DNA of 60,836 bases, taken from NCBI GenBank assembly GCA_000934665.2, contig JYFJ02002224.1, positions 1-60,836 on the forward strand. Direction: 5' to 3'. The notes beneath the pieces were generated by a model, which worked only from the letters and a program-made list of their open reading frames with translations, was not told the origin of the DNA and did no database searches. The stretch is from Catajapyx aquilonaris (taxonomy: Eukaryota). The position numbers were made by a program, and so were the translations under genes. Numbering within the stretch: the stretch's first letter is position 1; every line of letters begins with the position of its first letter. Shown here piece by piece: positions 6,888 through 48,748 of the stretch.

Positions 6888-8593
6888 TCATGTGGCTTTT
6901 CTTGGATGCGAGCAATCATGTCTTTTTAAAGCCATCGAGCGACTAAATGTTTTCCCACAAATATCACAACAGTAGGGTGTCTCTACCATGTGAATTCTGA
7001 CATGTGCGGAGAGAGCAGATGAACCACTGAATGATGCCTTGCAAAACTGGCAGGAAATCTTGTGCTTCTTGCGCATGTGTGATTCCAAATTTGATTTATC
7101 CGCATACGCTGCTTTCATGCAAATATGGCACTCATGTAGCTTTTCTCGGGTGTGAGGAATCATATGGTGTTCAAAATCAGTTGAGCCGCTAAACTCTTTC
7201 TCACAAATATCAGAACCATCAGGTTCCTCTTTCGTGTAAATTCTGACATGTGCAGACAGAGCAGATGAAGTTTTGAAGATTCCCTTGCAAACAGGACATC
7301 GAAATTGTCTCTCTTTAAGGTGGGTTTTCATATGGATATTCAAAGCATTTTGTTGAACAAATGATGCCTTACAAATCTGACAGCTAAATGGTCTCTCACC
7401 TGTGTGCAACCGCATGTGTATTTTCATATTATAATGTGATGCAAACTTTTTCTCACAAACATGACAATTACGCGACTTTTTTTTCACATGTCTCTTAAAA
7501 TGTCTTTCAAAATCAGTTGCGAGACTAAACTCTTCCCCACATATATCACAAGCGTAAGGTATCACTCCCGAGTGAATTCTGAGATGTGCGGTCAGAAGAG
7601 AAGCATCATCAAATGTTACCTTACAAATACCACAATCAAATGGTCTCTCACCAGTGTGGATTTTCATATGTGTTTTCAAATAAGATAAATAACTAAATGA
7701 TGCCTCACAAACTTCACAGCTACACTGTTTCCCCCCTGTGTGCTTGAGCATGTGTGTTTTAAGATCAAATAGATCATTGTACTTCTTATTGCAGACATGG
7801 CAATCATATGTCTTCCCTCCTGTGTGAGACGCAAATTGTCTTTTTAACTCCTTCCTCTTCTTCAAGTTTTCTTCATGCTGTTGTTCCTGCAATAAGCAAA
7901 AATAGACTGTTGGTACACTTTGCCATCATTACAGGTCAAGCAGTATTTTCTTTCTTCTTCCTTTCCTGGCCCTGTGCAGAGTAGGGAGTGCAATTCTGCC
8001 CCGGGATGTCGGGTGAAAAGCGGAAAAAGACTCGGCCAAGCAGAGGTGACAGGGACGGGATTTGAACCCCGGCCTCCCGATTGGCTGGCCAGTGGCGTAA
8101 CCACCAGACCACCATGCCTCCCTCCAAAATGTTATAACTTACGGGGTTTGCGCAATGGCGATAATGTAACATTAAATTCTAAATCCATCGTCAAAAAAAA
8201 GGATATGTCCACCTGGCATTCTTTTGTACTTTACGTAATTGATTTTTGAGGGATGCATGTATCATAAGCAACATGGACAATCATGCCTACCCTTGAAAGT
8301 ACCTCATGCATCACGTCAGAATGTATCTGATGCAGCGTGTGACGTACCTTACGAAAGACGCCATGTGAAATGTCTAACGGATCATGTTCAAAACGAGTGA
8401 CATTTGCCACAGCAACCAGTTCCTCTTCCTCCACTGGCTCCACTTTGACATCCTCTTCTCTGACGGCGGGAAGGCCCTCGTAGAAGGATGCAGAGGGCTC
8501 CTCCTTCAGCCGCAACTTCCAGTCCTCCTCCGTGGTGATGCTCCCTTCATCATCATCTTCTACAACCAATTCCTTTTTGATTTCCAATGACAT
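6888..8593 (-). CDS. C2H2 zinc-finger protein, family A copy 1 (acidic N-exon + 11 finger units, 2 degenerate)
   Basis: Exon 8593-8348 (MSLEIKKE...FEHDPLDISH) spliced in phase 0 to exon 7886-6888 with tandem CxxC..HxxxH fingers and TGERP linkers. Confidence 0.9.
7944..8122 (-). mobile_element. tRNA-derived SINE in ZNF intron
   Basis: Minus strand GGGAGGCATGGTGGTCTGGTGG (A box) ... GGTTCAAATCCC (B box), non-tRNA body, GAA-rich tail; absent from paralogous introns. Confidence 0.75.
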
Positions 8594-8810
8594 GCCCCTG
8601 GAATATAAACACAGTATGACTATGACATCTAGGAACACATGTATATTGTTTGTGTACCACTAGTGAACACTTGATATGTTAACACTGGTGGCCTCCTTCT
8701 TCCAACCCACCTGCTCATCCTTCCCACTGTTGCTTTGTGCCCGATCCTTCCCCAAATTGACGGAAAAGCGAAGGAAACTCAAAGAGAAGCAGCTGAAGAT
8801 GTCTTCTAAA

Positions 8811-8890
8811 GAGACGCCATCTTGGATCATGTGGGGGTGCATTCCCACCACCGCGCCAAACAACGGACAGGAAATGGCTTTAAACGCTAT
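8811..8890 (-). promoter_or_regulatory. Family-A promoter module (GGTGGGAATGCA ... CCAAGATGGCG, YY1/Pho-like)
   Basis: The same block recurs upstream of family-A first coding exons at about 15353, 21104, 24250, 27024 and 30088; AAGATGGCG matches the YY1/Pleiohomeotic consensus. Confidence 0.6.
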
Positions 8891-9248
8891 TTGAAGGAAC
8901 ACCGATAACAAGTCACTGCTACTATCACAGTATGACTGTTTACGTTGCCAATGAGTCTCACGCAGTACTTATTGTCATTTGCGCATGTCGTTTATTCTGC
9001 ATATTGTACAGAGCATTACATGGATATGAAGCAATTACAAAATTATTAACTTAACAAGGGTTTACAATGACTAATTGAAGCGGGTCTGGGGATTCAGAAT
9101 AAGACCACTCGTCGACGAGTGCTAGACCATGGGAGCTCAAATGACAGGAGATGAAATCATGGCAGCCTAATGCTTCTCTCCTCTGGGCTTGGGCATGTCA
9201 CTACTCAAACTTGATGGAAGGACACACTTTTCCTTGCAAGCCTAACAA

Positions 9249-10818
9249 TCATGTGGCTATTCCTGGATGCGAGCAATCATGTCTTTTTAAAGCCATCGAG
9301 CGACTAAATGTTTTCCCACAAACATCACAACAGTAAGGTTTCTCTACCATGTGAATTCTGACATGTGCGGAGAGAGCAGATGAACCACAGAATGCCGCCT
9401 TGCAAAACTGGCAAGAAAAGTGTGTGTGCTCGCGCATGTGTTTTTCCAAACCTGTCCTAGCCATAAACGTTTTCATGCAAATATGACACTCATATGGCAT
9501 TACTCGGGTGTGAGCAATCATATCAGTTGAGCCACTAAACTCTTTCCCACAAATATCAGAACCATCAGGGTTCTTTTTCGTGTAAATTCTGATATGTGCA
9601 GACAGAGCAGAGGAATCACTGAAGATTGCCTTGCAAACCGGACATCGAAATGGCCTCTCTTTAGGGTGGCTTCTCATGTGGGTTTTCAAAACTCCTTGAT
9701 AACCAAATGATGCCCTACAAATCTGACAGCTAAATGGTCTCTCACCTGTGTGCGACCGCATGTGTCTTTTCAAAGCAGAAGGTGATGCACACTTTCTCTC
9801 ACAAACATGACAATTACGTGACTTTCGTACGAGAGCTTTCACATGTCTTTTAAAATGTCTTTCAAAATTAGTTGAGCGACTCAACTCTTTCCCACAAACA
9901 TCACAAGAATAAGGTTTCACTCCCGAGTGAATTCTGAGGTGTGTGGTCAGATAAGAAGCATCGTCATATGTTACCTTACATATACCACAACCAAATGGTC
10001 TCTCACCAGTACGGATTTTCATGTGTGTTTCCAAATAAGATAAATAACTAAATGATGCCTCACAAACTTCACAGCTACACTGATTCCCCCCTGCGTGCTT
10101 GAGCACGTGTGTTTTAAGATCAGATGGATCAATATACTTCTTATTGCAGACATAGCAATCATATGTCTTTCCTCCTGTGTGAGACGCAAAATGTCTCTTT
10201 AACTCCTTCCTCTTCTTCAAATTTTCTTCATCAGTCTGTTGTTGTTCCTGCAATAAGCAAAAATAGACTGTTGGTACACTTTGCCATCACTACAGGTCAA
10301 GCAGTTAATAAACTACTGTGCATACTGGATGCTGCTTTGAATAGTTTAATCAAAATAATGTAACTTACATTAGATTTTCAATCTGTCGTCTTAAAAAAAA
10401 AGCATGTTTTCTATGTTCACCTGACATTCTTTCGTACTCTAATTCCTCATTAATTTTTTTTTGAGTGATACATGCATCATATGTGACATTGATAACCGTG
10501 AGGACAGTGTACTTTTAGCTTTTATGCCTACCCATGAAAGTAACTCAAGCATCATGTCAGAATTGAACAGTGACGTACCATATGGAAGACGCCATGGGAA
10601 ATGTCTAGCGGATCCTGTTCAAAATGAGTGACATCTGCCACAGCAACCAGTTCCTCTTCCTCCACTGGCTCCACTTTGACATCCTCTTCTTTGACGGTGG
10701 TAAGGCCCTCGTAGAATGACGCAGAGGGCTCCTCCTTCAGCCGCAACTTCCACTCCTCCTCTGTGGTGATGCTACTTCCATCATCATCTTCCTCTTCTTT
10801 TTTGATTGCCAACGACAT
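9249..10818 (-). CDS. C2H2 zinc-finger protein, family A copy 2
   Basis: Exons 10818-10579 and 10247-9249, phase 0, open frame, 11 finger units; upstream promoter block is truncated at about 11030. Confidence 0.85.
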
Positions 10819-11134: not shown

Positions 11135-11625
11135 TTTGATGCATGAAAATAATACTGTTACATGCGTGGACTTCACAAAGTGCAAAAAAAACAACAACTT
11201 TGGATTTGCAGTCTCTGGTACTGTACGTGGATCTGGCTGCTCTTCACATATAAGTGCAATTGATCAAAACAGGGTCCAATATCTTATTGCTAATTTGTAT
11301 GCAAATTGGCACACGTTTGTCTCTGAGCCTACTGACGATGAGGATGATCCCATTAGCCGTAACTCATAAAAGCCACGATATTAAGGTACATCAATGACAT
11401 GCACTGATATAAAGCGTCAAATTGTTCCATTACTTCTGTCCATTTTTCTAGAGATTAACCCGAAGTTGCAGAAGGATCAAAACAGAAGCTTTTCAGAGAA
11501 GGAAAAGGCGTCGCTTTCACCTAGGTGTCTTGCAATGGGCTGTTATCGACAGACATGCGGTGAACACTTGAGGCGGAGAGTGATTGGTAAAATACTTCCA
11601 TTACATGTAGTTTACTGCTTTGCCC
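11135..11625 (+). pseudogene. Degenerate partial copy of the Tc1-fusion gene (end of exon 1, intron 1, exon 2)
   Basis: GAGGATGATCCCATTAGCCGTAACTCATAAA...AAGGTACATCAA...ATGGGCTGTTATCGACAGACATGCGGTGAACACTTGAGGCGGAGAGTGATTGGTAAA matches 43419-43690; the 5' part matches about 42610-42750; frameshifted and truncated. Confidence 0.75.
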
Positions 11626-12003
11626 TAGAGCCTGTCGTGCTGTTAAGATGGGCCTGCCATCTACTATCAGTGCTCCAAGTTTCAGCACTCTCAGTAATCT
11701 AGGGCTACACAACTAGAACATATAATTAGAGAAACAATGCCGTTTAATCTGCATATTACACAGAGTGATACAGATATCCAGATATGACGCGATTACAAAA
11801 TTATTGCCATTACAAGGGTTTACAATGACTAATTGAAGCGGGTCTGGGGATTCAGAGTTAGACCACTCGTCATAATACACCACAGAGTGCTAGACCATGG
11901 GAGCTCAAATGACAGGAGATGAAATCATGGGAGCCTAATGCTTCTCTCATCTGGGCTTGGGCACGTCTCTACACAAACTGGATGGAACTTTACACTTTTC
12001 CTT

Positions 12004-12342
12004 TCAAGCCTGGCAATCATGTGGCTTTTCTCGGATGCGAGCAATCATGTCAAATGTTACCTTACAAATACCACAATCAAATGGTCTTTCACCAGTGTGG
12101 ATTTTCATGTGCGTTTTCAAATAAGATAAATAAGTAAATGATGCCTCACAAACTTCACAGCTACATTGTTTCCCCCCAGTGTGCTTGAGCATGTGTGTTT
12201 TAAGATCAGACGGATCATTATACTTCTTATTGCAGACATGGCGATCATATGTCTTTCCTCGTGTGTGAGACGCAAAATGTCTTTTTAACTCCTTCCTCTT
12301 CTTCAAATTTTCTTCGTCAGTCTGTTGTTGTTCCTGGCCTTC
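12004..12342 (-). pseudogene. Family-A ZNF pseudogene (copy 3)
   Basis: Finger exon with an internal deletion joining finger 3 to the end of finger 11 at about 12050; first exon missing, intron cut at 12398 by the THAP element. Confidence 0.8.
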
Positions 12343-14263: not shown

Positions 14264-15123
14264 TCATAATACACCACAGAGTGCTAGACCATGGGTGTGA
14301 GCAATCATATTGTGTTTAACATCAGTTGAGCCACTAAACTCTTTCCCATAAATATCAGAACCTTCAGGTTTCTCTTTCGTGAAAAATCTGACGTGTGCAG
14401 ACAGAGTAGACGAAGTTCTGAAGATTGCCTGGCAAACCGGACATCTAAATGGGTTAGGGTGGCTTCTCATATGGATTTTCAAATATTGTTGATAAACAAA
14501 ACAATGATTCCTTACAAATCTGACAACTAAATGGTCTCTCACCTGTGTGCGACCGCATGTGTGTTTTCAAAAGAGAAGGATATGCAAACTTTCTCTCACA
14601 AACATGACAATTATATGACTTTAGGGTGAGAGCTTTCACATGTCTCTTTAACTCCTTCCTCTTCTTCAAATTTTCTTCATCAGTCTGTTGTTGTTCCTGC
14701 AATAAGCAAAAATATACTGTTGGTACACGTTGCCATCATTACAGGCCGCTGGACAAACATACGAACAAATATTCCAATTTATTGATGTAAGATATTGGCT
14801 CTCATTGATTATAACACATGTGGAAGGGAGTCTATTTGAATGCCACTGATTGAAAGTAACTCAGGCATCAGAATTTAACAGTGACGTACCTTATGGGAGG
14901 CTTTGTGAGAAACGTCCAAAGGATCCTGTTCAAAATGAGTGGCATTTGCCACAGCAACCAGTTCCTCCACTGGCTCCACTTTGACATCCTCTTCTTCGTC
15001 GAGGCTGTTGAGGCCCTCGTAGAACTGTGCAGAGGGCTCCTCCTTCAGCCGCAACTTCCACTCCTCCTCTGTGGTGATGCTCCCTTCATCTCCCTCCTCT
15101 TCCTTTTTGATTGCCAACGACAT
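14264..15123 (-). pseudogene. Family-A ZNF pseudogene (copy 4)
   Basis: Exon 1 intact (15123-14890); finger exon from 14696 has a 4-nt insertion near 14500 relative to paralog 5 (frameshift) and lacks the last three fingers. Confidence 0.8.
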
Positions 15124-16136: not shown

Positions 16137-16313
16137 ATGTCGTTGGCAATCAATAGTTTGGACGTAGAAGATGACAGCATCGTAATGACAGATCAATCGA
16201 CTCTCATTCAAGATGCCCTGAATGAAATTAAGGCTGAAGAAAAGGAAGACGAGATGATGGTTACTGTGCCAGATGTTGTGGACAATGCGGAAGATCCCTT
16301 AGCCATCAGTAAG
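16137..16313 (+). pseudogene. Family-B ZNF first exon only (internally deleted; finger exon lost)
   Basis: MSLAINSLDVEDDSIV...DNAEDPLAISK|gtacac is homologous to 40052-40294; downstream sequence skips the finger exon. Confidence 0.75.
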
Positions 16314-16710: not shown

Positions 16711-17352
16711 ATGGAGGTGAAAATACAGGAAGAAGTGATCGCAACAGGGAAGGAAGATGACAGCGTTACTGTAGAGGAGCCCTGGAGTTTGGTAATGAAG
16801 GAAGAAATCGCATCATGTTACGTTGATGAGTCCGCCACTGATGATGTGGCTGTTAATAAGTCAGAAGAGGATGAACAGATGGTCATTGCTTCAAATATCC
16901 CCGATGATGTGGACGACCCGCTGGCATGTACTAACGAAGGAAGCAACCAGGTATATCTAAAATACATAAAATTTAATACGTGGGCATAATCACTTTTGAT
17001 GATTAGCATGCTATGCACTTAATGCATTTTAATGTTTCAGGGAGAACATGAGAAGACGGATGATAATGCGAAGAGAAAGTGTTTGGATCAATCAGATGGT
17101 CTGACATACCGTGCTGCACACACCGCCGGGGAAAGGCCGTTTGGCTGCCAAATTTGCAACATGAGGTTCACCAGGGCCTTTTCTCTGAAAACACATATGA
17201 TGATACATACAGGGGAGAAGCCTTACACGTGCCAAGTTTGCCAAAAAAAGTTCCGCCGTAAATCACACCTGGAAAGACACTCGAACGTACACGGTTATGC
17301 CACTTGGTTGCTAGATGTGAAGCAAAGACATTTAGAGCCGCCGCATAAATGA
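16711..17352 (+). CDS. Two-finger C2H2 protein, family C copy 1 (183 aa)
   Basis: Exons 16711-16950 (MEVKIQEE...DDPLACT) and 17041-17352, phase 0; two canonical fingers with TGEKP linker; close paralog at 41628-42265. Confidence 0.85.
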
Positions 17353-17589
17353 GCAACATACAACCGCACACATGCAAATAAGCTTAGGAAAATGATTATT
17401 TAATTACTTTTATAATTAACATGAGCTGTTTTCACGCATGCGCTGAGAATGTCATGTGCTGATATAGTGATAGTATGTTGATCACATTTGTTATGCAGTT
17501 ACCAGTCTCTTGCCATCCGGATTTTTGAAGCAGAAGCCATGAAAAATGTGATTGACGATGTGTAGTAATGTTAGTAATAAAATTTGTAA

Positions 17590-18070: not shown

Positions 18071-18455
18071 CCTGTCGTGCTGTTAACATGGGCCTGCCAT
18101 CTACTATCAGTGCTCCAAGTTTCAGCACTCTCAGTAATCTAGGGCTACATAACTTGAACATATAATTACAGAAACAATGTCGTTTATTCTACATATTACA
18201 CAGAGCGATACAGATATCTAGATATGAAGCAATTACAAAAGTATTGCCATTACAAGCGTTTACAATGACTTTTGATGGGGATTTGGTGATTCAGAGTTAG
18301 ACCACTCGTCATAATGCACCACCGAGTGCTAGACCATGGGAGCTCAAATGACAGGAGATGAAATCATGGTAGCCCAATGCTTCTCTCCTCTGGCCTTGGG
18401 CATGTCTCTAACCAACCTCCATGGAACTATACACTTTTCCTTGCAATCCTAACAA

Positions 18456-20871
18456 TCATGTGGCTTTTCTCGGATGCGAGCAATCATGTCTTTTTAAAGC
18501 CATCGAGCGACTAAACTTTTTCCCACAAATATCGCAACTGTAAGGTTTCTCTACCATGTGAATTCTGACATGTGCAGCGAGACCAGATGGACCACCGAAT
18601 GATGCCTTGCAAAACTGGCAGGAAATCTTGTGGTTCCTGCGCACGTGTTGTTCGAAACCTGTTCTAGATAACGTTTTCATGCAAATACGGCACTCATACA
18701 GCTTTTCTCGGGTGTGAGGAATCATATTGTGTCTAACATCAGTTGAGCCACTCAACTCTTTCCCACAAATATCAGAACCTACAGGTTCCTCTTTCGTGAA
18801 AAATCTGACATGTGCAGACAGAGTAGACGATTTTATGAAGATTGCCTGGCAAACCGGACATCTCAATGGTTCGGCTTTAGGGTGGCTTCTCATATGGGCT
18901 TTCCAATATTGTTGATAAACAAATGATTCCTTACAAATCACACAGCTAAATGGTCTCTCACCTGTGTGCTTGCGCATGTGTACTTTCAAAGAAGAAGAAT
19001 ATGCAAACTTTCTCTCACAAACATGACAAATATATGGCTTTACAGTGAGAGCTTCCACATGTCTTTTTAACTCTTTCCTCTTCTTCAAATTTTCATCATC
19101 AGTCTGTTGTTGTTCCTGTAATATGCAAAAATATACTGTTGGTATAGTACACGTTGCCATCATTACGGTCAAGCAGTTGATTTTTTTCAGAGACAGAGTC
19201 TTCCGATGTGTGCAGGAATGAAATATGGTTGTCTAATTCTCCTCAATCCAATTTGGCCAAACTAGGAAGGTCCATTGTTTACAATTATTATGCCTATTAT
19301 TTTAGTCTTTGTTCTGATAGTGGCCAAACAGTTACAGTCATCAAAAATTGACAATGTACTTTATGATGGGAAATATAATTATCTTCAAGTTCCCTTCCAA
19401 ACCGTTTTTCGTGAAATGAAAGGTTAAAAGTATTTTTGCCGCCATATTTGAAAGAATGCCACCGTAAGATGTGAGTGAGAAAATGGCTACAAATTGATTT
19501 GTTAAACCTTCTGATCATGCTTAACAACTTCCCACAAACAGATCAAAATGAACATGAAATATGAGGCAAACTTATTTTTTGAACAAATCTTCCCGAACTA
19601 TTAAACCCGAGATAATAATTTATCGAGGATTGACATTTTCTTGCTGACAAGATGGTGGCGGAATGCATGTTCGCATGTATGGTTGAGCTATTTGTGTACA
19701 AATTTCCCAAACCATAAGGCTAGGACACCATTATTGGCAGAGGGAGGGAAACCATACATTAGCCCTATGGCAAAAATTGTATTCAGGAATAATAAATCAC
19801 AATGTTAGTGTCCAATGTCCATGCAGCATGACAGTGAAATACCTCACGGAAGACTTCATGGGATATGCCAAAGGTATCCGGCGCAAACCGAAGAAGCCCT
19901 TCCACGCTGTCCGTGTCGTCCTCCACTGGCTCTTGCTCATGTAAGTCTCTGACAGCCTTCTAAGGAATACATGCATCACAAAAATCACGAAATTGATTGC
20001 ACAGATCTATCAGGAATACTGATTTAGGGCCGGTTGCATCGGTCGCGGTATATGGAACGGTATATGGAAGAACCCTGCATCGCGGGTACACGGTATATGC
20101 CATGAAAAACCACGGGTTTATTCCATAGCGTTGCACCGGTCCAGATAAACGGGGGGTTATCGGTAGAATGCTGGCCCATGAGAGACGTAAGCGGGCAAAA
20201 ATTTTGGAGAGCCCTGATTGGATCGCAGCACCCGTGACGCAAGCCGTGACGTCATGGAAGTATGGCTAGTCGTCTAGTACCTACGGCAACCACGTGGCAG
20301 GGTTTCCACCTGGTGTCACACAGTACACAAAATCCCAAGCACCAGTCCGCAACCACGACAACACCATAAACCCGCGGTACAAGCAACTTGTGCTGCAGGA
20401 TCGGCGGGTAGATGGATCCGGCAGTAAATGGGAGGGAGAACGGGCCATTTTAGAACAACCGTAGGTGGCGCAACACTTCTCACGGTATACCGGAGTCAAA
20501 ACCCGCCGTTTTCCATATACCGTGACTGGTGCAACCGGCCCTTACTGGAAATGATTACTACTTCTTGCTTATGCCTAGCCTAGTAATTTTTGTATCATGG
20601 CAGAATTTCCTAGACGCAAACAGTGACGTACCTCGTGGACGGCTTCGTGGGAAATGTCTAAGGGATCCTGTTCAAAATGAATCACATCTGCCACAGCGAC
20701 CAGATCCTCTTCCTCCACTAGCTCCACTTTGACATCCTCTTCTTTGACAGTGGTAAGGCCCTCGTAGAACTGCGTAGAGGGCTCCTCCTTCAGCCGCAAC
20801 TTCCACTCCTCCTCCGTGGTGATGCTACTTCCATCATCATCTTCCTCTTCTTCTTTGATTTCCAATGACAT
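18456..20871 (-). CDS. C2H2 zinc-finger protein, family A copy 5 (7 finger units)
   Basis: Exons 20871-20632, probable cassette exon 19959-19843, and 19115-18456; all phase 0; first four fingers absent. Confidence 0.85.
20027..20541. mobile_element. PIF/Harbinger (Tourist-like) MITE, 515 bp
   Basis: TIR GGGCCGGTTGCA(T/C)C(G/A)GTC(G/A)CGGTATATGGAA; TTA duplicated on both sides; empty site GATTTACTGG with a single TTA in the paralog at 26463-26465. Confidence 0.92.
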
Positions 20872-22071: not shown

Positions 22072-22314
22072 ATGTCGTTGGCGATCAAGAGTGAGTTGGA
22101 CGTAGAAGACGAGAGCATCGTGACGGAAGAGACTTGGAAGCTGGCACTGAAGGAAGAGACTCCGTCATGCTTTGATCCCGATTCGACTCTCATTCAGGAC
22201 ACCCTGAATGAAATTAAGGCCAAAGTGACAGAAGAGGAGATGATGGTTACTGTGCCATATGTTGCGGACAACGCGGAAGATCCGTAAGTCATTTATCATG
22301 AAGGAATCAGTAAG
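22072..22314 (+). pseudogene. Family-B ZNF first exon with premature stop; finger exon deleted
   Basis: MSLAIKSELDVEDE...DNAEDP* (TAA at 22285-22287 where paralogs have TTA); intron homology to copy B4 ends at 22500, where the mariner 3' end abuts. Confidence 0.8.
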
Positions 22315-22500: not shown

Positions 22501-23735
22501 ATCTTTCAACTCAAACATAGTCCCCGTGGGCGTTGAGGCACTTGTCCCATTGTGACACAAGTCGCTGGATGCCGCGCTGGAAGAACTCCTGAGGCTGCTG
22601 GCTGAAGAACTCCCGGACAGCGGTTGTCACTTCCTCGTCCGAGTGGAAGTGGTGCCCCCGGAGTGCCTCTTTCAATGGGTCGAAGATGTGGAAGTCACAG
22701 GGTGAGAGGTCAGGACTGTAAGGAGGGTGTTCGAGGACTTCCCAGCCCATGTTGTGCAGGTGTGACTTTGTGACATTTGCAGTATCGGGCCGCGCATTGT
22801 CGTGGAGCAGAATGATTCCCCTGGACAGGCTGCCGGGGCGTTTGTTCTTGATGGCTCTGCGTAGGCGCACCAGTGTCTCATGGTACCGCTCCTTGTTTAC
22901 CGCCTGGCCTTGTGGCGAGAACTCAATGAGGAGGGGTCCTTGGTCGTCAAAGAAGAACGTCAGCATGACCTTGCCAGCAGACGGCTGCGTGCGGAACTTC
23001 TTGGTTGCCGGCGAAGACTGGTGCTTCCAAGTCATGGATGCCCGCGTGGACTCCGGCTTGTAGTGGTGGCACCATGATTCATCTCCCGCAACAACACGCA
23101 TGAGGAAGGAGTTGCCCTCTTGCTCGTACCGCTGCAGGTGTTGCAATGACAGGCTCATTCGCAACGTGCGTTGATCTGCGGTGAGGTTGCGTGGGACCCA
23201 CTGGTTACACACCTTGTGATACTCAAGGACGTTATTAACGATCTTGTACGCCGTGCCGTGACTGATGCATGCCTGCTCAGCAATCCTGTCGATGGACAAG
23301 CGCCGATCACTTTGAACCAACCCCTCGACGCACACTAGGCTTGCATCATTGGAGGCGGTAACAGGTCGGCCTGACCGTGCCATGTCCGACGTGCCTTGTC
23401 GACCACTGCGGAAATCGCGTACCCAGGCCTTCACTGTCGAGTACGCTACGCAAGTGTCTCCATACACAGCCCTCATGCGTGTATGAATCTCCTTTGGTCC
23501 CGCTCCCTCTGCACACAGGAACTGAATTACTGCCCGTTCGTCCGCCTTGGACGCACCTGATATGGTGAACGACATATTTGGACTGTGTACCGCAGCTATT
23601 ACGCAGCACACCGAGTCCACTCTTGGCCAGGTTGGCGACTGCGAATGTACCTCACAGCCAACCACAGCAGCACCTGTCTCCGTGTCACCTGCCGGCCTCC
23701 CGCGGCCAGGACGGGAACTTATTGACCTAACCTAA
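22501..23735 (-). mobile_element. mariner element with intact 354-aa DD34D transposase (ATG 23575, stop 22511); 3' TIR deleted
   Basis: WVPRNL, AGDESW, HDNARP, YSPDLSPCD (34-residue D-D spacing), N-terminal HTH and RSGRP; 5' end TA|TTAGGTTAGGTCAATAAGTTCCCG; no matching inverted repeat downstream of the stop. Confidence 0.93.
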
Positions 23736-24031
23736 TACAACGCAAGCATTTTAATATTTAATAGAAGCAGCATGACAGTAATGTATACCTTATGGGAGGC
23801 TTCGTGGGAACTGCCTAAAGGATCCTGTGCAAAATGAGTGGCACTTGCCACAGCGACCAGTTCCTCTTCCTCCACCGGCTCCACTTTGACATCCTCTTCT
23901 TCGTCGAGGCTGGTGAGGCCCTCGTAGAACTCTGTGGACGAGTGCTCCTCCTTCACTCTCAGCTTCCACTCCTCCTCCGTGGTGATGCTCCCTTCATCTT
24001 CCTCCTCTTCCTTTTTGATTTCCAACGACAT
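22511..24031 (-). CDS. Predicted chimeric gene: family-A acidic N-exon spliced to full mariner transposase (487 aa)
   Basis: Exon 24031-23789 (81 codons, phase 0), 57-nt intron gtatac...ttgtattag (23788-23732), then an open frame from 23731 through TIR/5'UTR (VRSISSRPGRGRPAGDTETGAAVVGC...) into the transposase; intact family-A promoter upstream. Confidence 0.6.
23738..23765 (-). mobile_element. Helitron 5'-end remnant
   Basis: TCTATTAAATATTAAAATGCTTGCGTTG matches the 5' terminus TCTATAATATTAAAATGCTTGCGTTG of the Helitron ending at 57483. Confidence 0.65.
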
Positions 24032-24614: not shown

Positions 24615-26789
24615 TCATGTGGCTTTTCTGGGATGCGAGCAATCATGTCTTTTTAAAGCCATAGAGCGACTAAACGTTTTCCCACAAATATCACAACAGT
24701 AAGGTTTCTCTACCATGTGAATTCTGACATGTGCGGAGAGAGCAGATGAACCACTGAATGATGCCTTGCAAAACTGGCAGGCCAACTGTGTGTGCTTGAG
24801 CATGTGTTTTTCCACACCTGATTCAGCATGAAACTTTTTACTGCAAACCTGGCACCCATATGGCTTTTCTGGTGTGTGAGCAATCATATGGTGTTCAAAA
24901 TCAGTTGAGCCACTGAACTCTTTCCCACAAATATCAGAACCATCAGCAGGTTTCTCTTTCGTGTAAATTCTGATATGTGCAGACAGAGCAGATGAACTTC
25001 TGAAGATTGCCTTGCAAACCGGACATTGAAATGGCCTCTCTTTAGGGTGGGTTTTCATATGGATTTTCCAAGCTTTTTGATAAACAAATGATTCCTTACA
25101 AATCTGACAGCTAAATGGTCTCTCACCTGTGTGCGACCGCATGTGTAATTTCAAAGGAGAAGGATACGCAAACTTTTTCTCACAAACATGACAATTATAT
25201 GACTTTCGGGTGAGAGCTTTCACATGTATTTTAAAATGTCTTTTAAAATCAGTTGAGAGACTAAACTCTTTCCCACAAACATCACATGAATAAGGTGTCA
25301 CTCCCAAGTGAATTCTGAGATGTGTGGTCAGATAAGAAGCATCATCAAATGTGACCTTACAAATACCACAACCAAATGGTCTCTCACCAGTGTGGATTTT
25401 CATGTGTGTTTTAAGATCAAATAGATCATTACACTTCTTATTGCAGATATGGCAATCATATGTCTTCCCTCCTGTGTTCAACACAAATTGTCTCTTTAAC
25501 TCCTTCCTCTTCTTCAAATCTTCTTCGTCAGTCTGTTGTTGTTCCTGCAATAAGCAAAAATATACTGTTGGTACACTTTGCCATCATTACAGGTCAAGCA
25601 GTTGATTTTTTTTCCAGAGACAGGTTCTTCCGATGTGTGCAGGAATGAAATATGGTGTCGAATTTTCCTCAATCCAAGGTGGCCAAACTAGGAAGGTGCA
25701 TTGTTTACAATTATTATGCATATTCAGTCTTTGATCTGATAGTGGCCAAACAGTTACAGTTATCAAAAATTGATAATGTACTTTATGATGGGAAATATAA
25801 TTATCTTCAAGTTCCCTTCCAAACCGTTTTTCATGAAATGAAAGGTTAAAAGTATTTTTGCCGCCATATTTGAAAGAATACCACCGTAAGATGTGTGAGA
25901 GAGAAAATGGCTACAAATTGATTTGTTAAATTTTCTGATCATGCTTAACAACTTCCCACAAACAGATCAAAATGAACATGAAATATGAGGCAAACTTATT
26001 TTTTGAACAAATCTTCCCAAGCTATTAAACCCGAGATAATAATTATTGATCGAGGATTGACATTTTCCTGCTGACAAGATGGTGGTGGAATGCATGTTCG
26101 CATGTATGGTTGAGCTATTTGTGTACAAATTTCCCAAACGGCTAGGACACCATTATTGGCAGAGGGAGGGAAACCATACAATAGCCCTATAGCTAAAATT
26201 GTATTCAGGAATAATAAATCACAATGTTAGTGTCCAATGTCCATGCAGCATGCACCATGCAATATGACAGTGAAATACCTCACGGAAGACTTCATGGGAA
26301 ATGCCAAAGGTATCCGGTGCAAACCGAAGAAGCCCTTCCACGCTGTCCGTGTCATCCTCCACTGGCTCTTGCTCATGTAAGTCTCTGACAGTCATCTTCT
26401 AAGGAATACATGCATCACAAAAATCACGAAATTGATTGCATAGATCTATAAGGAATACTGATTTACTGGAAATTCTTGCTTATGCCTAGCCTTGAGAGTA
26501 ATGTTTGTATCATGGCAGAATTTCCTAGATGCAGCCAGTGACGTACCTCATGGACGGCTTCATGGGAAATGTCTAAAGGATCCTGTTCAAAATAAGACAC
26601 ATCTGCCACAGCGACCAGATCCTCTTCCTCCACTGGCTCCACTTTGACATCCTCTTCTTTGACGGTGGTAAGGCCCTCGTAGAAGGACGCAGAGGGCTCC
26701 TCCTCCTTCACTCTCAGCCTCCACTCCTCTTCCGTGGTGATGCTACTTCCATCATCATCTTCCTCTTCTTCTTTGATTTCCAATGACAT
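24615..26789 (-). CDS. C2H2 zinc-finger protein, family A copy 7 (10 finger units)
   Basis: Exons 26789-26547, probable cassette exon 26398-26279, and 25544-24615; open frame. Confidence 0.88.
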
Positions 26790-27930: not shown

Positions 27931-29848
27931 TCATGTGGCTTTTCTCGGATGCGAGCAATCATGTCTTTTTAAAGCCATCGAGCGACTAAATGTTTTCCCA
28001 CAAATATCACAACAGTAGGGTGTCTCTACCATGTGAATTCTGACATGTGCGGAGAGAGCAGATGAACCACAGAATGCCGCCTTGCAAAACTGGCAGGAAA
28101 TCTTGTGCTTCCAGCGCATGTGTCTTTCCAAACCTGAATTACAAGTAAACATTTTCATGCAAATATGGCACTCATCCAGCTTTTCTCGGGTGTGAGCAAT
28201 CATATTGTGTTCAATATCAGTTGAGCCACTAAACTCTTTCCCATGAATATCAGAACCATCAGGTTTCTCTTTCGTGTAAATTTTGACATGTTTAGACAGG
28301 CGAGATGCAGTTCTGAAGATTGCCTTGCAAACTGGACATTTAAATGGTCTCTCTTTAAGGTGGGTTTTCATATGGACTTTCAAAGCTTTTTGATAAACAA
28401 ATGATTCCTTACAAACCTGACAGCTAAATGGTCTCTCACCTGTGTGCAACCGCATGTGTGTTTTCATATTATAAGGTGATGAAAACTTTCTCTCACAAAC
28501 ATGACATTTATATGGCTTTTTTTCCGCATGTATTTTACAATGTCTTTCAAAATCAGTTGAGAGACTAAACTCTTTCCCACAAATATCACAAGAATAAGGT
28601 GTCACTCTCGAGTGAATTCTGAGATGTGCGGTCAGAAGAGAAGCATCATCAAATGTTACGTTACAAATACCACAACCGAATGGTCTCTCACCAGTGTGGA
28701 TTTTCATGTGTGTTTTAAGATCAGATGGATCATTACACTTCTTATTGCAGACATGGCAATCATATGTCTTCCCGCCTGTGTGAGACGCAAATTGTCTTTT
28801 TAACTCCTTCTTCTTCTTCAAATCATCTTCAGTCAGGTCTTCATCAGTCTGCTGTTGTTCCTGTAATACGCAAAAATATACTGTTGGTACACTTTCCTAT
28901 AATTACAAGTCAAGCAGTATATATTTTTTCAGGGACAGATTCTTCCGATGTGTGCAGTAAAGAAATATGGTTCTCTAATTTTCCTCATACAAGGTGGCCA
29001 AACTAGGCAGGTCCATTGCTTACAAATATTATGCACAGTTAGTCTTTGATCTGATAGTCACTAAACAGTTACAGTTATCAAAATATTAATAATGTAATTT
29101 TTGATGGCAAATTTATAAGTTCCATTCAAAACAGTTTTAGTAATGGCTCCTGCTCAAATGAGGCCCCCTTCCAAGGAACGAATGCATCAGGCATATTATT
29201 GACTAACCGGACTGATTACACTGTACTCCAGATTATCCATGCTAATTGAAGCACAAGCGTGCCTGGAAAACCAGAAAAAAATTAAATGAAAATGGCCCTA
29301 GACACCATAAAAAAAGGGCTATTCAGAGATTATTAATGAACTACTGTGCATACTGGACGCTGCTTTAAAAAGTTTAATCAAAATAATATATAACTTAAAT
29401 TAGATTTTAAATATGGTGTCTAAAAAAAGCATGTTTATAGGTTCACCTAACATTCTTTCATACTTTATTTTTTGGAGTGATGCATGTATCATAATTATGC
29501 AACATGGATAATCGTGAGTACAGTGTACTTCTTTCTTACTTATGCCTACCCATGAAAGTAACTCACGCATCATGTCAGAATGGAACAGTGTCGTACCTCA
29601 TGCAAGACGCCATGGGAAATGTCTAACGGATCCTGTTCAAAATGAGTGGCACTTTCCACAGCAACCAGTTCCTCTTCCTCCACTGGCTCCACTTTGACGA
29701 CATCCTCTTCTTCGTTGACGCCGGTAAGGCCTTCGTCATAGAACTGCGTAGACAAGGGCTCCACCGCCACCTTCCACTCCTCCTCCGTGGTGATGCTCCT
29801 TTCATCATCTTCTGCCTCCTCTACTTCTTTTTTGATTGCCAATGACAT
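27931..29848 (-). CDS. C2H2 zinc-finger protein, family A copy 8 (10 finger units)
   Basis: Exons 29848-29597 and 28860-27931, phase 0, open frame. Confidence 0.88.
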
Positions 29849-37942: not shown

Positions 37943-38830
37943 ATGTCGTTGGCGATCAAGAGTGAGTTGGACGTAGAAGATGAGAGCATCGTGACGGAAG
38001 AGACTTGGAAGCTGGCACTGAAGGAAGAGACTCCTTCATGCTTTGATCCCGATTCGACTCTCATTCAAGATGCTCTGAATGAAATTAAGGCTGAAGAAAA
38101 GGAAGACGAGATGATGGTTACCGTGCCAGATGTTGCGGACAATGCGGAAGATCCCTTAGCCATTAATCATGAAGGAATCAGTAACGGCGCAGTAACGGGA
38201 GATACGAAGGGGAAGAGGAAATTTAACTGCCAATTTTGCAATAGGGAATTTGACAATTTGCGTAATATGAAACAACATGTAAGGATTCATACTGGAGAGA
38301 CGCCGTTTAAGTGTCCGGTTTGTGATAGAAAGTTTCGGTATAGAACTACTTTGTCGCGACACAAACTGACACACCCTGGAGAAACTACTTCTGAAATTTG
38401 TCAGGATAGGTTGATTGACTGTTGCGGTTTATCAGAATGCAAGGAGCTGGCTATAATGTGTGAGGAATTAAAATGCGAGGTTTGCAAGAGGAGGTTTCGT
38501 TGTCTTTCCCAACTGAAATCTCACAAGAGAAAACATGCTGGGGCGAAATCATTCAATTGCTCTGTATGCAATAATAAATATTCCCGCTCATATGGGCTGG
38601 CCCTACACTTACGGACTCACACTGGCGAAAAGCCATATAGTTGCCAACTTTGCAACAAAAAATTCACCAACTTATCTAATATGAAGAAACACATACAGAC
38701 ACATACAGGTGAGAAGCCATATTCATGCCAGATTTGCCTGAAACGGTTTGCCTCAAAGACGGATCTACAGAGGCACCTCCGAATGCACCGGAGTCAGAAG
38801 AGTTCTAGTCACCAACAGGACGCAATTTAG
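37943..38830 (+). CDS. C2H2 zinc-finger protein, family B copy 3 (295 aa, 6 canonical fingers, no internal coding intron)
   Basis: Single open frame from MSLAIKSE... through DPLAINHEGIS directly into fingers with TGEKP linkers. Confidence 0.9.
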   Translation: MSLAIKSELDVEDESIVTEETWKLALKEETPSCFDPDSTLIQDALNEIKAEEKEDEMMVTVPDVADNAEDPLAINHEGISNGAVTGDTKGKRKFNCQFCNREFDNLRNMKQHVRIHTGETPFKCPVCDRKFRYRTTLSRHKLTHPGETTSEICQDRLIDCCGLSECKELAIMCEELKCEVCKRRFRCLSQLKSHKRKHAGAKSFNCSVCNNKYSRSYGLALHLRTHTGEKPYSCQLCNKKFTNLSNMKKHIQTHTGEKPYSCQICLKRFASKTDLQRHLRMHRSQKSSSHQQDAI

Positions 38831-40051: not shown

Positions 40052-41197
40052 ATGTCGTTGGCAATCAAGAGTGAGATGGACTCGGGAGATGAGGGCATCG
40101 AGACAGAAGAGACATGGAAGCTGGCACTGAAGGAAGAGACTCCGTCATGCTTTGATCCCGATTCGACTCTCATTGAAGACGCCCTGAATGAAATTAAAGC
40201 CGAAGCGACAGAAGACGAGATGATGGTTACCATGTCAGATGTTGCGGACAATGCGGATGATCCCTTAGCCGCTACTCATGAAGGAATCAGTAAGGTACAC
40301 TAGTCACAAACACCATAAAATATAGCTGAAAAATACGGAGAGAATTTTCTTGGTATTAACATAACGAGGCTTCATAAATGTGTAATGATGTCTCGTATGT
40401 TTTCATCTGTAGCACTGAAATGAATGGTTTGCAATCATGTTCGCGTAGCGGAATTAAATAATAATTATGTGTACGCCTTTCAGACAGAAGAGGAGAAGCA
40501 GGCAGAAGGAAATGCGGCGGGGAAATGCACCAAGAGACACTTCCGAGGGAGGCCCTGCGGATGCCACCTTTGCATGGGAGATAGCGCAGAGAAGAAATTC
40601 AGTTGCCAATTTTGCAATAGGGAATTTAACAAATCTGCTAATATGAAACAACATCAAAGGATTCATACTGGAGAGAAACCATTTACGTGCCAGATTTGCG
40701 ATGCAAAGTTTTGTTTTGCCTCTAATTTGTCGCGACACAAACTTACACACTCTGGAGAAACAATTAGTTCTGAAATTTGTCAGGATAGGTTGACTGACTG
40801 TTGCGGTTTAGGAGAGTGCAAGAAGCTGCCTATAGGGAGTGAGGAATTAAAATGTGAGGTTTGCAAGAAGAGGTTTCGTTGTCTTTCCCAATTGAAATCT
40901 CACAAGAGAAAACATGCTGGGGTGAAATCATTTAATTGCTCCATATGCAATAAAAAATTTGCCCGTGCCTATGGGCTTACCAAACACTTACGAACTCACA
41001 CCGGCGAAAAGCCATATAGTTGCCAATTTTGTCACAAACAATTCTCCCAGTGGTCTAGTAGAACGAGGCACTTGCGGACACATACAGGGGAGAAGCCATA
41101 TTCATGCGAGGTTTGCCTAAAAAGGTATGCTGGGAAATCGGATCTAACTAGGCACCTCCAAACACGCCATGGCGAGAAGCGTTTTGTTTTCCACTAG
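40052..41197 (+). CDS. C2H2 zinc-finger protein, family B copy 4
   Basis: Exons 40052-40294 and 40484-41197, phase 0; 6 canonical fingers. Confidence 0.9.
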
Positions 41198-41627: not shown

Positions 41628-42265
41628 ATGGAGGTGAAGATAAAGGAAGAAGTGATCGAAGGGAAGGAAGATGACAGCGTTACTGTAGAGGAGCCCTGGA
41701 ATTTGGTAATGAAGGAAGAAATCGCATCATGTTACGTTGATGAGTCCGCCACTGATGATGTGGCTGTTAATAAGTCAGAAGAGGGTGAACAGATGGTCAT
41801 TGCTTCAAATATCCCCGATGATGTGGACGACCCGCTGGCATGTACTAACGAAGGAAGCAACCAGGTAAGTTATATGCAACAATGGGCACAACAATCACTT
41901 TTGATGATTAACAAGCTATGCACTTAAACTAAAATGGATTTTTAATGTTTCAGGGAGAACATGAGAAGACGGCTGATAATGCGAAGAGAAAGTGTTTGGA
42001 GCAATCAGATGGTCTGACATACCGTGCTGCACACACCGCCGGGGAAAGGCCGTCCGTCTGCCAAATTTGCAACATGACGTTCACCAGGTCGTTCACTCTG
42101 AAAACGCATATGATGATACATACCGGGGAGAAGCCTTACACGTGCCAAGTTTGCCAAAAAAGGTTCCGCCGTAAATCACACTTGGAAAGACACTCGAAAG
42201 TGCACAGTTACGCTGCTTGGTTGCTAGATATGAAGCAAAGGCATTTAGAGCAGCAGCGTAATTGA
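41628..42265 (+). CDS. Two-finger C2H2 protein, family C copy 2
   Basis: Exons 41628-41864 and 41954-42265, phase 0. Confidence 0.85.
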
Positions 42266-43262
42266 GCGACGTACAAACCGCACACATGCAAATAATAAGC
42301 TACGGAAAATAATTTCTTTTTTTATTTAATTACTTTTATAATTAACCTGAGCTGTTTTCACGCACGCGCTGAGAATATGTTGATAGTGATAGTTGATCTC
42401 ATTTGTCACAGTTTTGAGGTAGTTCGCCTCATTTTTGAAGCAGGAGACGCATTGAAATGTGATTGGTGATTTTTGTAGTATAATATTTTAGTACAGCAAT
42501 TAAAAACATACCGGTACTTTTGGGAAATTTGATGCATAAAATACATGTAAAATTGAAATGTGATTAGTGCAATGTTAGCACGGTAATAAAATACTTAATT
42601 TTTTGTTTGTAAAATTTGATGCGTTAATTACTTGTTTACATGTGTGTGGACTTCAAAAGTGCAACACTTTTGTTGGATTCGCATAGGTCTCGTATTGTAC
42701 TCTTCACATACTAGTTCAATTAGTAATCAATTGTTAATTGGTAAATTGCAAATTAAGAAGTTAACACAATATTATTAACAACCAATTATTAAAATAATTG
42801 AACGTTATTTTGTAGCAGTTACTTTGCTAAGTAGCAGTGATTGTCATTTAGCAGCGATTGTGTTATTAAGCGGCGATGCGATATTTCGCCAAAAGGCCCG
42901 TTGGTCTGAGTGTGAACGCACCCACAAGATGGCTTCCTTATCAAGGCCACTCCAGCTTCTCTCTCCTTCTGTTTGAGGCTCATTTTCCGGCCTTTCCTCA
43001 TCAGTGGCGGTCAGTCTGGGCCGTGCGATGGAAGCAGCAGATGTTGAAGAGTAAGTTGAGCTCGGTTGGAGTCGAAGGGAGCCCAAAATGAGGGCAGGAT
43101 CTGTGGTCATATGTAGTGTGGCAGCATAAAAATAATGCGGAAGTCACTAGTTCAAATTCACTGTAAATATTGGCAGAAATGTTGGCGATTAATTGCAAAT
43201 GGTAATTAGTAGCATGGCATCATCATAGACCACATGTTGAATTTTTCAGGACCGAATCGGTG

Positions 43263-44931
43263 ATGATCAAGCTGGAGATGATGGACGGAATGGAGGGAAA
43301 TACTGCGGACGACATTGAGGATATGACGGAAGAGGCTCATGTTTGCTGTAATGATGAGTCGGCCGTTGACGTAAAGGACATTAAGATGGAAGCAATCGAG
43401 GAGCAGGCGTTCCTCGCTGAGCCTACCGGCAAAGAGGATGATCCGTTAGCCGTAACTCATAAAACTCCCGATAAGGTACATCAACAACATGCGGGGATAA
43501 AGCATGCAGTACTTACATTATCTTCTGTCTTTAGATTAACCTGAGGTCACAGAAGGATCAAACCACAGTGTGCAAAGTTTCAAAGCAGAATCAACAGAGG
43601 AGTCGTGCTATGGGCCGTTATCGAAAGACATGCGGGGAAGACCTGAGGCGGAAAGTGATTGGTAAATATTCCCATTGCATGTAATTTACTGCCGTTTTTC
43701 TAACGAATGGTTATGAACGTATAGAGCTAAGAAGAACGGGGCTGTCAGTCCGAGAGGTTGCGGCACGACTGCTTGTTAGCAAATCGACTGTCAGTACTAT
43801 TTATTTGCGGTTTGCCAACAGTTGCGCTGAGAACGAGGAGGAAGCTTTTAAGGAAGCTCTTACACCTAGGTTCAAAGGAAGGTAAATTGCAGTCAATGTG
43901 CACATTTCATGTCTACAAGCGTTACATGCCACAGGTGCGGACGTCCTCGCATGACCACTACTTTCGAGGATGAACAAATTGCGAAGATTAGCCAGCTCGG
44001 TATCCCCACATGTGTGTCTGCACCTGTGATATGGAAGGACATGGACTTGCAAGGCATTGTGTCCGTGGAGACGATCCGCAACAGGCTTCAGGAAGCCAGG
44101 CTGCGTTTACGCAAAGTCGATCCGAAGCCCACGTTGACATACTTAAGTCGACAGGAACGGCTGTACTTTTGTGGTAATTATTGGTAATATTTATCGACCG
44201 AGTGTGTTGCATGCAGCAAGTAATTCGTATGGCAATTTTTTCTAGAACAATACCAATCATGGACTACTTCCGATTGGGAATCAGTGGTGTTTATGGATGA
44301 AGCCATGGTAGAAGTCGGCTGGCGGGGGAAGCGGCAAGGGTGGGAGCTTCCGAAGCACAGAAATGACCCCCGGAATCTCAGGCTGGTCCAGAGAAGTGGA
44401 AGACTTTCTGTGGGTCTCCTCTCGTGGATGTCCGTCACCTCCGTAGGGCCTGTAATACCTGTCGGAGGACAGATGAATGCTGCGGACTACGTGACCATAC
44501 TTGACGAGGACGTGCTGCCTTGGCTGGACGAGGAGAATCCCGATGGATGCTACTACATGGTTCATATCCACTCACCGATCCAGACAGCAGATGTCGTTAC
44601 CGAATGGGTAATATTCTAGTGCACAATCGCAGTTTCTGGTACTTATCCTGGCATACGCTTGCAGATGGAGCTAAACCCTAGCCTGATGTTCATCGAGTGG
44701 CCTTCCCAGGCTAGCGACCTCAATCCGATGGCGTTCTTCTGGAAGATGCTTAAAGAGAGGCTGCTGGGAGAGAGATTTTACAACAAGGCCGCCCTCTGGA
44801 TGGCGATTCAGAGAGAGTGGACGAACCTCCAACACGATTTCTGCGCGCGCAAAAACCTGGTGGCCAGCATGCCCCGACGGATCAAAGAAATTCTGAGGAA
44901 AAAAGGAGGCTGGAGCCACACACACTGTTAA
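43263..44931 (+). CDS. Domesticated Tc1-like transposase fused to a ZNF-type acidic N-exon (454 aa, 6 coding exons)
   Basis: Exons 43263-43475, 43535-43661, 43725-43881, 43935-44173, 44246-44607, 44665-44931; introns 59, 63, 53, 72, 57 nt, all GT-AG; total 1365 nt with no internal stop. HTH GLSVREVAARLLVSKSTV, GRPR, SVETIRNRL, W..VVFMDE, WPSQASDLNPM, LVASMPRR..KKGGW. Confidence 0.85.

Positions 44932-46833: not shown

Positions 46834-48748
<1,915 letters not shown>

Follow-up and report, generated by a model that had tools for sequence, protein, structure and literature searches.

A recurring acidic exon at the head of zinc-finger genes and of a predicted Tc1-type transposase fusion gene in a contig of Catajapyx aquilonaris

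Effector modules that head fast-evolving zinc-finger (ZNF) gene families are known from several lineages: KRAB in tetrapods, ZAD in insects and FiNZ in cyprinids. Here we analyze a stretch of DNA from Catajapyx aquilonaris (contig JYFJ02002224.1 of assembly GCA_000934665.2, 60,836 nucleotides, referred to below as the window), in which one short acidic exon, termed the head, recurs in front of C2H2 zinc-finger arrays and of a Tc1-like transposase. The window is animal-like in its content: introns are short in its spliced genes, which include a C2H2 cluster, a caspase and fibrinogen-related genes, and one open reading frame (ORF) without introns resembles an ionotropic glutamate receptor (iGluR). 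It represents a compact, sequence-defined case of the same logic as in the families above, built on an unrelated exon that appears to be disordered and based on short motifs. It also includes a well-preserved and apparently domesticated Tc1 fusion, which is the strongest new result.

FiNZ genes carry a glutamate-rich single exon of 28 aa before the finger exon, and transposons are derepressed when these genes are knocked down (Wells et al. 2023, PMC10547256). In the sections of that paper drawn on here, FiNZ is reported as unique to cyprinids, its mechanism is left open and SUMO is not mentioned; a 2024 paper proposes TRIM33 as the FiNZ partner. Fusions of host genes with transposases have been catalogued mainly in tetrapods, where they number at least 94, about one-third with KRAB (Cosby et al., 10.1101/2020.05.07.082677). 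In the same account, KRAB-transposase fusions are formed by splicing of a ZNF exon into a transposon-borne acceptor, and they act as repressors.

The acidic exon and its zinc-finger genes

An earlier note on this DNA had described 14 acidic exons beginning with ATG: seven of a family A, four of B, two of C and a single one, T, fused to a Tc1 transposase. All 14 are present as located. A profile of the head, compared with all 1576 six-frame ORFs of at least 25 aa, returns exactly 14 full copies and two partial intronic copies. The full copies are as follows (a slash marks a splice junction here and below):

8348..8593, minus strand: A1 acidic exon beginning with ATG, 82 codons (acceptor, donor, profile)
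10579..10818, minus strand: A2 acidic exon (acceptor, donor)
14890..15123, minus strand: A3 acidic exon (acceptor, donor)
20632..20871, minus strand: A4 acidic exon (acceptor, donor)
23789..24031, minus strand: A5 acidic exon, donor AAG/GTATAC, no finger exon downstream
26547..26789, minus strand: A6 acidic exon (acceptor, donor)
29597..29848, minus strand: A7 acidic exon (acceptor, donor)
16137..16313, plus strand: B1 acidic exon remnant with an internal deletion and without a finger exon
22072..22314, plus strand: B2 acidic exon, interrupted by a TAA in frame; the intron behind it extends to 22508, where a mariner element starts, and the finger exon is deleted
37943..38185, plus strand: B3 acidic part, within one ORF with fingers
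40052..40294, plus strand: B4 acidic exon (acceptor, donor)
16711..16950, plus strand: C1 acidic exon (acceptor, donor)
41628..41864, plus strand: C2 acidic exon (acceptor, donor)
43263..43475, plus strand: acidic exon 1 of the T gene, 71 codons (acceptor, donor, match to the combined A+B+C profile)

The edges of the exon are as constant as had been claimed. A candidate acceptor lies just 5' of the ATG, with its AG at a distance of 4–5 nt in 13 exons and of 14 nt in T, and a phase-0 donor of the (A/C/G)AG/GTA type closes 13 of the 14 copies. The exception is B3, which has no donor and reads directly into six fingers. The donor is found 12 codons past an Asp-Pro pair in 12 exons, and 7 codons past it in B1, which carries the internal deletion. 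The terminal DPL described earlier stands for its first two residues, which are invariant (14/14), and less so for the leucine, which is present in 13 copies and replaced by TAA in B2. Both of its edges being in phase 0, the head is compatible with splicing to DNA-binding exons of any kind. The head is 59–84 codons long, with 25–36% aspartate plus glutamate, a net charge of -13 to -23 and at most 0–2 cysteines; aromatic residues (W, F or Y) number 4–5 in the A heads and 0–2 in most B, C and T copies.

The relationship between the families was assessed by scoring profiles of each family against members of the others, with 1000 composition-matched shuffles per comparison. No shuffle reached the observed scores for A and B (54.6 and 48.9 bits), A and C (25.8 and 23.3 bits) or B and C (42.2 and 42.3 bits), which indicates that the heads of A, B and C are homologous well beyond composition. 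The scores of T are lower: 14.5 and 14.3 bits with A (1/1000 and 0/1000 shuffles), 14.7 and 19.8 bits with C (0/1000 in both), and 6.3 and 6.8 bits with B (14/1000 and 10/1000). Against the combined A+B+C profile T scores 19.8 bits, which none of 5000 shuffles attained (shuffle maximum 12.6). The T head thus appears to be a distant member of the family, weakly similar to each family singly, but sharing both exon edges with them. The earlier note had staked its proposal on mutual similarity of hidden Markov models beyond composition, and the profile scores do exceed those of the shuffles.

The exons joined to the heads of families A, B and C encode arrays of C2H2 fingers:

6888..7886, minus strand: A1 finger exon, phase-0 acceptor ttgcAG/GAACAA, eight canonical fingers, ten Pfam stretches
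9249..10247, minus strand: A2 finger exon, eight canonical fingers
12004..12342, minus strand: truncated A-type finger exon without an acidic exon of its own
14264..14696, minus strand: A3 finger exon, frameshifted (pseudogene)
18456..19115, minus strand: A4 finger exon, four canonical fingers and degenerate ones
24615..25544, minus strand: A6 finger exon, eight canonical fingers
27931..28860, minus strand: A7 finger exon, eight canonical fingers
37943..38830, plus strand: B3 acidic region and six fingers in a single ORF, intron lost, upstream acceptor kept
40484..41197, plus strand: B4 finger exon, six fingers
17041..17352, plus strand: C1 finger exon, two fingers
41954..42265, plus strand: C2 finger exon, two fingers

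Phase-0 acceptors on the finger ORFs match the donors of the heads (ttgcAG/GAACAA in A, tttcAG/GGAGAA in C, tttcAG/ACAGAA in B4). Intact two-exon models are obtained for A1, A2, A4, A6, A7, B4, C1 and C2, with B3 as a one-ORF version, whereas A3 (frameshift), the headless A fragment at 12342-12004, B1, B2 and A5 (no fingers) are broken. The cluster is both expanding and decaying. As had been proposed, one homologous acidic exon heads finger arrays of varied length (2, 6 or 8–10 fingers) as well as a Tc1-type transposase.

The head is coding sequence under moderate purifying selection. The ratio of nonsynonymous to synonymous substitution rates (dN/dS) of the head is 0.25–0.50 in 17 of the 21 A pairs and 0.66–0.90 in the remaining four, which pair A7 with A1, A2, A4 and A6; it is 0.18–0.48 across the three pairs of B2, B3 and B4, and C1 and C2 are too alike for an estimate. 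In the fingers of A1, A2, A4, A6 and A7, the codons of the four base-contacting positions have a dN of 0.10–0.57, as against 0.05–0.11 at the other positions, with a dS of 0.08–0.19. The divergence of the contact codons is suggestive of the pattern of arms-race ZNF families.

The best-conserved columns of the head are the lysine-containing motifs and D-P-L, not the aromatics. The 14 heads hold 37 psi-K-x-(E/D) sites, 1–4 per head, where shuffles predict 5.8 (0/2000 reach the observed number), and these sites take up 37 of the 72 head lysines. This count overstates independence, as the copies are related, and the meaningful signal is the retention of three aligned positions across families: I-K-x-E at residue 5, followed by an acidic run, (L/V/M)-K-E-E at approximately residue 27, and (V/I)-K-x-E at approximately residue 48. 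The C heads retain one or two of the three sites and T retains two. The several (I/V/L/M)KxE motifs reported for each head therefore represent a real and positionally conserved enrichment of the SUMO consensus, and the heads possess the sites expected of a SUMO-consensus substrate. The other motif previously put forward, a CtBP-binding one, fits family A and fails in B, C and T. Most family-A copies do read PLDIS (5/7; A3 has PLDVS and A5 PLGSS), and the published CtBP consensus calls for L or M at the position of the I in the A motif. The heads of B, C and T have PLA(I/A/C/V) at this place, with a stop codon for L in B2, and PLDIS occurs in none of the seven. A CtBP-type PxDLS is thus not common to the whole family; with PLDIS confined to family A, CtBP binding cannot be the common mechanism. 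Binding of SUMO was also considered as a common feature and dropped, as hydrophobic cores resembling SUMO-interacting motifs (LVAV) are found in family A only. An AlphaFold2 model from a 13-sequence alignment has a pLDDT of 59.9 and a pTM of 0.11, with a single four-residue helix and no other secondary structure; the head is predicted to be an intrinsically disordered region bearing short motifs rather than a fold.

A Pfam search for a named domain, which the earlier note had proposed, was run at E up to 1 with B3 and with the heads of A1, C1 and T, and it matched no family to the head. Neither a word-indexed protein search with residues 1–81 of B3 nor a comparison of the A2 head with longer proteins returned relatives. 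A 13-head profile found among 1.84 billion representatives one low-complexity match (E 7.6e-4, six stretches); the best score in the ESM Atlas was 0.82, under the useful range, and of 590 pattern matches to the A2 head in metagenome contigs none was confirmed. The 673-aa iGluR-like protein encoded in the window likewise lacks relatives at 1e-10 in a large protein library, from which it appears that the searched libraries probably miss this lineage, and that the null searches consequently say little on the novelty of the head. A literature search, non-exhaustive and not possible by sequence, found no description of the exon.

Several members show further peculiarities. In B3, the homology to B2 ends exactly at the donor position, which speaks for a precise loss of the intron, or for a deletion in frame, more than for a full retrocopy. 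The two partial copies lie inside long introns, those of A4 and A6, as candidate cassette exons:

19843..19959, minus strand: candidate cassette exon of A4 (117 nt, phase 0-0), corresponding in diverged form to the 3' third of the head exon
26279..26398, minus strand: candidate cassette exon of A6 (120 nt, phase 0-0)

Both have a ccttag/ acceptor and a GAG/gtattt donor and encode a diverged last third of the head (...EPVEDDTDSVEGLLRFAPDTFGISHEVFRE); the 3-nt difference in length leaves the frame intact. If spliced in, they could double the terminal motif. A block of approximately 135 nt with 84–90% identity is found 3' of several A-type genes (24423-24555, 18177-18315, 27655-27787 and 11737-11878), from which it follows that the duplication unit reaches past the coding exons.

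The Tc1-like fusion gene and the mariner element

Read unspliced, the Tc1-like region behind the T head contains four in-frame stops and one frameshift. Five GT-AG segments of 59, 63, 53, 72 and 57 nt, all with good splice consensus, contain all of the stops and the frameshift, and removal of these five putative introns leaves a stop-free ORF of 454 codons, composed of the 71-residue head, a 25-residue linker and a full-length Tc1-like transposase. The predicted exons following the head are:

43535..43661, plus strand: T exon 2, 25-codon linker and transposase start
43725..43881, plus strand: T exon 3, first helix-turn-helix
43935..44173, plus strand: T exon 4, HTH_Tnp_Tc3_2 (E 7.8e-7, 29.7 bits, Pfam cut-off 31.5)
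44246..44607, plus strand: T exon 5, catalytic core, with the first D retained and I in place of the second
44665..44931, plus strand: T exon 6, end of the catalytic core, E changed to A, stop at 44929-44931

Exons 5 and 6 are colinear with the catalytic domain of Sleeping Beauty (SB; 5CR4, SB100X) with E-values of 0.0077 and 1e-10, exon 5 ending at SB residue 147 and exon 6 resuming at SB residue 154. The catalytic residues are D-I-A instead of D-D-E, and the active triad is thus incomplete. Inverted-repeat searches around T revealed no terminal pairs. As a control for the intron-based rescue of the frame, up to five GT-AG introns of 50–75 nt were allowed in shuffled versions of the T region; none of the 500 could be read to the end, the longest reaching 1278 of 1666 nt.

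The junction between head and transposase is found twice more in the window:

11314..11618, plus strand: decayed copy of the end of T exon 1, intron 1 and exon 2, with a 1-nt insertion in the D-P-L codons
17766..18058, plus strand: second decayed copy of the same segment

These decayed copies have 74% identity to the T segment. As they already hold the junction of head end, intron 1 and exon 2, the fusion predates the duplications that gave rise to them. The copy at 17.8 kb is placed after C1 as T is placed after C2, and its flanks (17396-17567) match those at 42322-42480; this position and the flanking homology point to segmental duplication. T combines an in-frame splice join between host exon and transposase with the marks of an immobilized transposase, namely missing inverted repeats and dispensable catalysis. 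From these sequence features we take T to be a fusion gene of host exon and transposase that has been domesticated. The link of the head to Tc1 proves to be stronger than the earlier note had claimed, extending to a six-exon, 454-codon fusion gene with a transposase predicted to be catalytically dead.

The second transposase neighbors a head of family A:

22511..23735, minus strand: mariner element, ORF intact, 5' inverted repeat from 23735

Its ORF (22511-23731) matches Mos1 from end to end (E 1e-48) with all three catalytic aspartates (DDD) kept, and the transposase domain of SETMAR (3K9J) with an E-value of 3.5e-40. The 5' inverted repeat, spotted by eye and confirmed to be unique in the window, has its first base at 23735, preceded by a TA and 54 nt inside the intron of A5, while an inverted-repeat search around the element returned no terminal pairs. 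At the 3' end the outer approximately 10 nt of the repeat are missing, and there the B2 intron, which ends at 22508, meets the element; a deletion beside the element therefore took the finger exons of both convergent genes, A5 and B2. The TTAG/GT of the repeat is a candidate acceptor that would define a 57-nt intron in frame with A5, a size matching the T introns, and the 52-codon leader of mariner is open in the transposase frame only. In-frame splicing of A5 into mariner is therefore possible, though we consider it doubtful that the arrangement is a nascent fusion rather than a bystander. By its sequence, mariner is a catalytically intact element in the A5 intron, and nothing marks it as domesticated or immobilized. 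Of the repeated transposase capture proposed earlier, the Tc1 case is thus solid, while the mariner case reduces to an intact intronic element whose splicing to the head is only possible.

A possible effector role and competing explanations

We propose that the window houses a tandemly duplicating C2H2 gene family, in which each member begins with a homologous acidic head, about 80 residues long and predicted to be disordered. Short linear motifs make up this head—three psi-K-x-E sites amid runs of acidic residues and, at the phase-0 donor, a closing D-P-L-x3-(H/N)-x4—and it would act as the effector, with the fingers or the DNA-binding domain of the transposase providing the address. In its most likely action, the head would be SUMOylated at its conserved lysines and would thereby bring repressive chromatin factors to targets derived from transposons, by analogy with the KRAB-ZNF, FiNZ-ZNF and KRAB-transposase genes. 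Everything past the gene structure we infer, and the parts of the proposal differ in strength. It is very probable that a shared coding effector exon has been combined with fingers and with a domesticated Tc1 transposase, and a role of the head as a transcriptional effector is probable; to the statement as a whole, up to and including the transcriptional effector, we assign a probability of roughly 60%. Repression through SUMO is a tentative reading, at somewhat less than even odds. The three lysines and the one D-P-L motif offer targets for mutation in studying how non-KRAB ZNF families communicate with chromatin. A more far-reaching version, which we regard as unlikely, holds that this lineage built its own KRAB-like system from scratch, with the acidic SUMO-motif exon as a universal silencing handle and transposase capture visible at two stages: an old, intron-rich and dead Tc1 fusion, and a nascent mariner fusion that would use the TTAG/GT acceptor of its own repeat. 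If this were true, the fusion of an effector exon with a transposase would be a general and convergent route of transposon control outside vertebrates, and SUMO, not an adaptor of the TRIM28 type, would link the head to chromatin.

Several observations weigh against our proposal. All splice junctions are inferred from sequence alone. Relatives of the head were found in none of the libraries searched, and the statistics rest on paralogues of common ancestry within the window. Part of the cluster decays, as seen from A3, A5, B1, B2 and the headless fragment. Divergence of the contact codons is weak as a count, with 14 of 32 contact columns variable as compared with 38 of 136 other columns (Fisher p = 0.09). 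The psi-K-x-E motif is short, and of the three sites C and T have just one or two. As for the fusion, the Pfam matches of T to HTH_Tnp_Tc3_2 and DDE_3 are both under the curated cut-offs, PDB searches with the helix-turn-helix exons of T gave chance-level matches only, and the intron rescue reached full length in 5 of 348 random windows of the same 60 kb, real long ORFs being among these windows. Finally, an acidic disordered chain with W, F, Y and L is the textbook signature of an acidic activator.

The last point leads to a different role for the head, that of an acidic activation domain in which exposed hydrophobic and aromatic residues recruit co-activators and the K-x-E sites are a SUMO brake ('synergy control') or incidental. 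Its acidic content (25–36% D+E), charge of -13 to -23 and predicted disorder agree with this, as do the 4–5 aromatics of the A heads. Most B, C and T copies, however, have just 0–2 aromatics, the lysine motifs and D-P-L are better conserved than the aromatics, and the known analogues of the same architecture (KRAB, FiNZ and KRAB-transposase) repress; activation is a serious contender but an unlikely one. Roles outside transcription—a DNA mimic that auto-inhibits the fingers, condensate formation or nuclear sorting—would suit the extreme negative charge beside basic DNA-binding domains, the predicted disorder and the lack of a recognizable co-factor-binding domain in Pfam. Charge alone, however, needs neither conserved K-x-E and D-P-L-x3-H motifs nor a dN/dS of 0.25–0.5, and the same head is retained on an unrelated DNA-binding domain, that of the transposase, which makes such roles quite improbable.

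The association with transposases might also be accidental, with Tc1 and mariner having landed in ZNF introns and no fusion protein being made. For mariner much agrees with an accident: the 5' repeat is preceded by a TA target and lies 54 nt inside the intron, the DDD triad and the ORF are intact as in an active element, the finger exons of A5 and B2 were lost in the adjoining deletion, and given the open 5' leader an in-frame position has a chance of one in three. For T the same explanation would have to account for four stops and a frameshift that all fall inside five GT-AG segments, whose removal restores an in-frame, colinear transposase; for the failure to rescue any of 500 shuffles; for the missing inverted repeats; for a 454-codon ORF that stays open despite the loss of catalytic residues; and for the presence of the junction in two older copies. 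As an explanation of both links, accident is improbable. Alternatively, T could be a formerly or still mobile, intron-bearing Tc1-like element that had acquired a host exon, its three copies being transposon copies. Some Tc1-family elements do carry introns, and the three copies have the junction of head end, intron 1 and transposase start in common. Yet none of the copies is surrounded by inverted repeats, two of the three catalytic residues are replaced, and the 17.8-kb copy is syntenic after C1 with flanking homology, as expected of segmental duplication and not of transposition; we find a mobile origin of the copies highly improbable, and retain the reading of T as a domesticated fusion gene.

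Neighboring genes and comparison with described systems

The remaining genes of the window are of varied kinds. An ORF with a THAP domain (12818-13558, minus strand; Pfam E 5e-12) lies between the remains of A3 and the headless A fragment; it is GC-rich, has its own ATG and no acidic head, and contains an internal tandem duplication of approximately 35 residues. An ORF at 3479-4123 (plus strand) encodes two C2H2-like fingers behind a serine/lysine-rich N-terminus without an acidic head, so the module does not head all finger genes of the window. The zinc-finger cluster is interspersed with another tandem family, consisting of three or four fibrinogen-related genes of several exons each (30300-36900 on the minus strand, 45477-48748 and 57760-59802 on the plus strand), with signal peptide and coiled-coil exons and a Fibrinogen_C match of E 3e-41 in one exon. 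The intronless ORF at 50778-52796 (minus strand; 673 codons, signal peptide) matches Lig_chan with 26.4 bits, under the cut-off, and weakly resembles a variant ionotropic glutamate receptor. Caspase exons with short introns are found at 658-2349 (minus strand; Peptidase_C14, E 2.6e-11). The sole Rfam match is a tRNA-like sequence at 56298-56369 (minus strand; 30.2 against a threshold of 29 bits), possibly a tRNA-derived repeat.

The head resembles SUMO-dependent repression modules in its repeated psi-K-x-E sites within D/E runs, and SUMO-SetDB1 links are known from transposon silencing in flies; such modules, however, are usually single regulatory sites in larger proteins, not the backbone of a family-defining exon. 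With the ZAD-ZNF genes of insects the locus shares a lineage-specific N-terminal module on clustered, fast-evolving C2H2 genes. ZAD is a folded zinc-binding dimerization domain with four cysteines, whereas the head has no Pfam match to zf-AD (PF07776), no four cysteines and no predicted fold. SETMAR, in which a SET exon is spliced onto the Hsmar1 transposase, is the parallel for a host exon joined to a transposase of the mariner family. SETMAR is a fixed, transcribed fusion with an altered third catalytic residue, while the mariner of the window retains DDD and its 5' repeat and is known here from DNA alone.

The resemblance to FiNZ-ZNF genes is closer in architecture: an E-rich single exon stands directly 5' of one finger-array exon. 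As far as FiNZ is described in the sections cited above, both have a short E-rich N-terminus without similarity to known domains and form large, tandemly expanding and fast-evolving families with a proposed role in transposon repression. The FiNZ exon encodes 28 residues and the head 71–84 with a terminal D-P-L, a comparison made by description only, and the genomic setting of the head, with introns of 53–72 nt, an intronless iGluR-like gene and fibrinogen-related clusters, is unlike that of FiNZ.

The analogy of architecture with KRAB, ZAD and FiNZ drawn in the earlier note holds, and it extends furthest for KRAB-ZNF genes and the KRAB-transposase fusion KRABINER. In the part of their description used here, as in the window, one effector exon is found on finger arrays and on a captured transposase, and the transposase is immobilized; the layout of A5 and mariner resembles steps (i)-(ii) of the origin of KRABINER given there. 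The module itself differs, as the head has no match to the KRAB domain (Pfam PF01352, E up to 1, with the A1, C1 and T heads and B3) and is predicted to be disordered. The fusions differ as well: most tetrapod fusions, by the same account, contain mainly the DNA-binding domain of the transposase, whereas T appears to keep a whole transposase, split by five introns.

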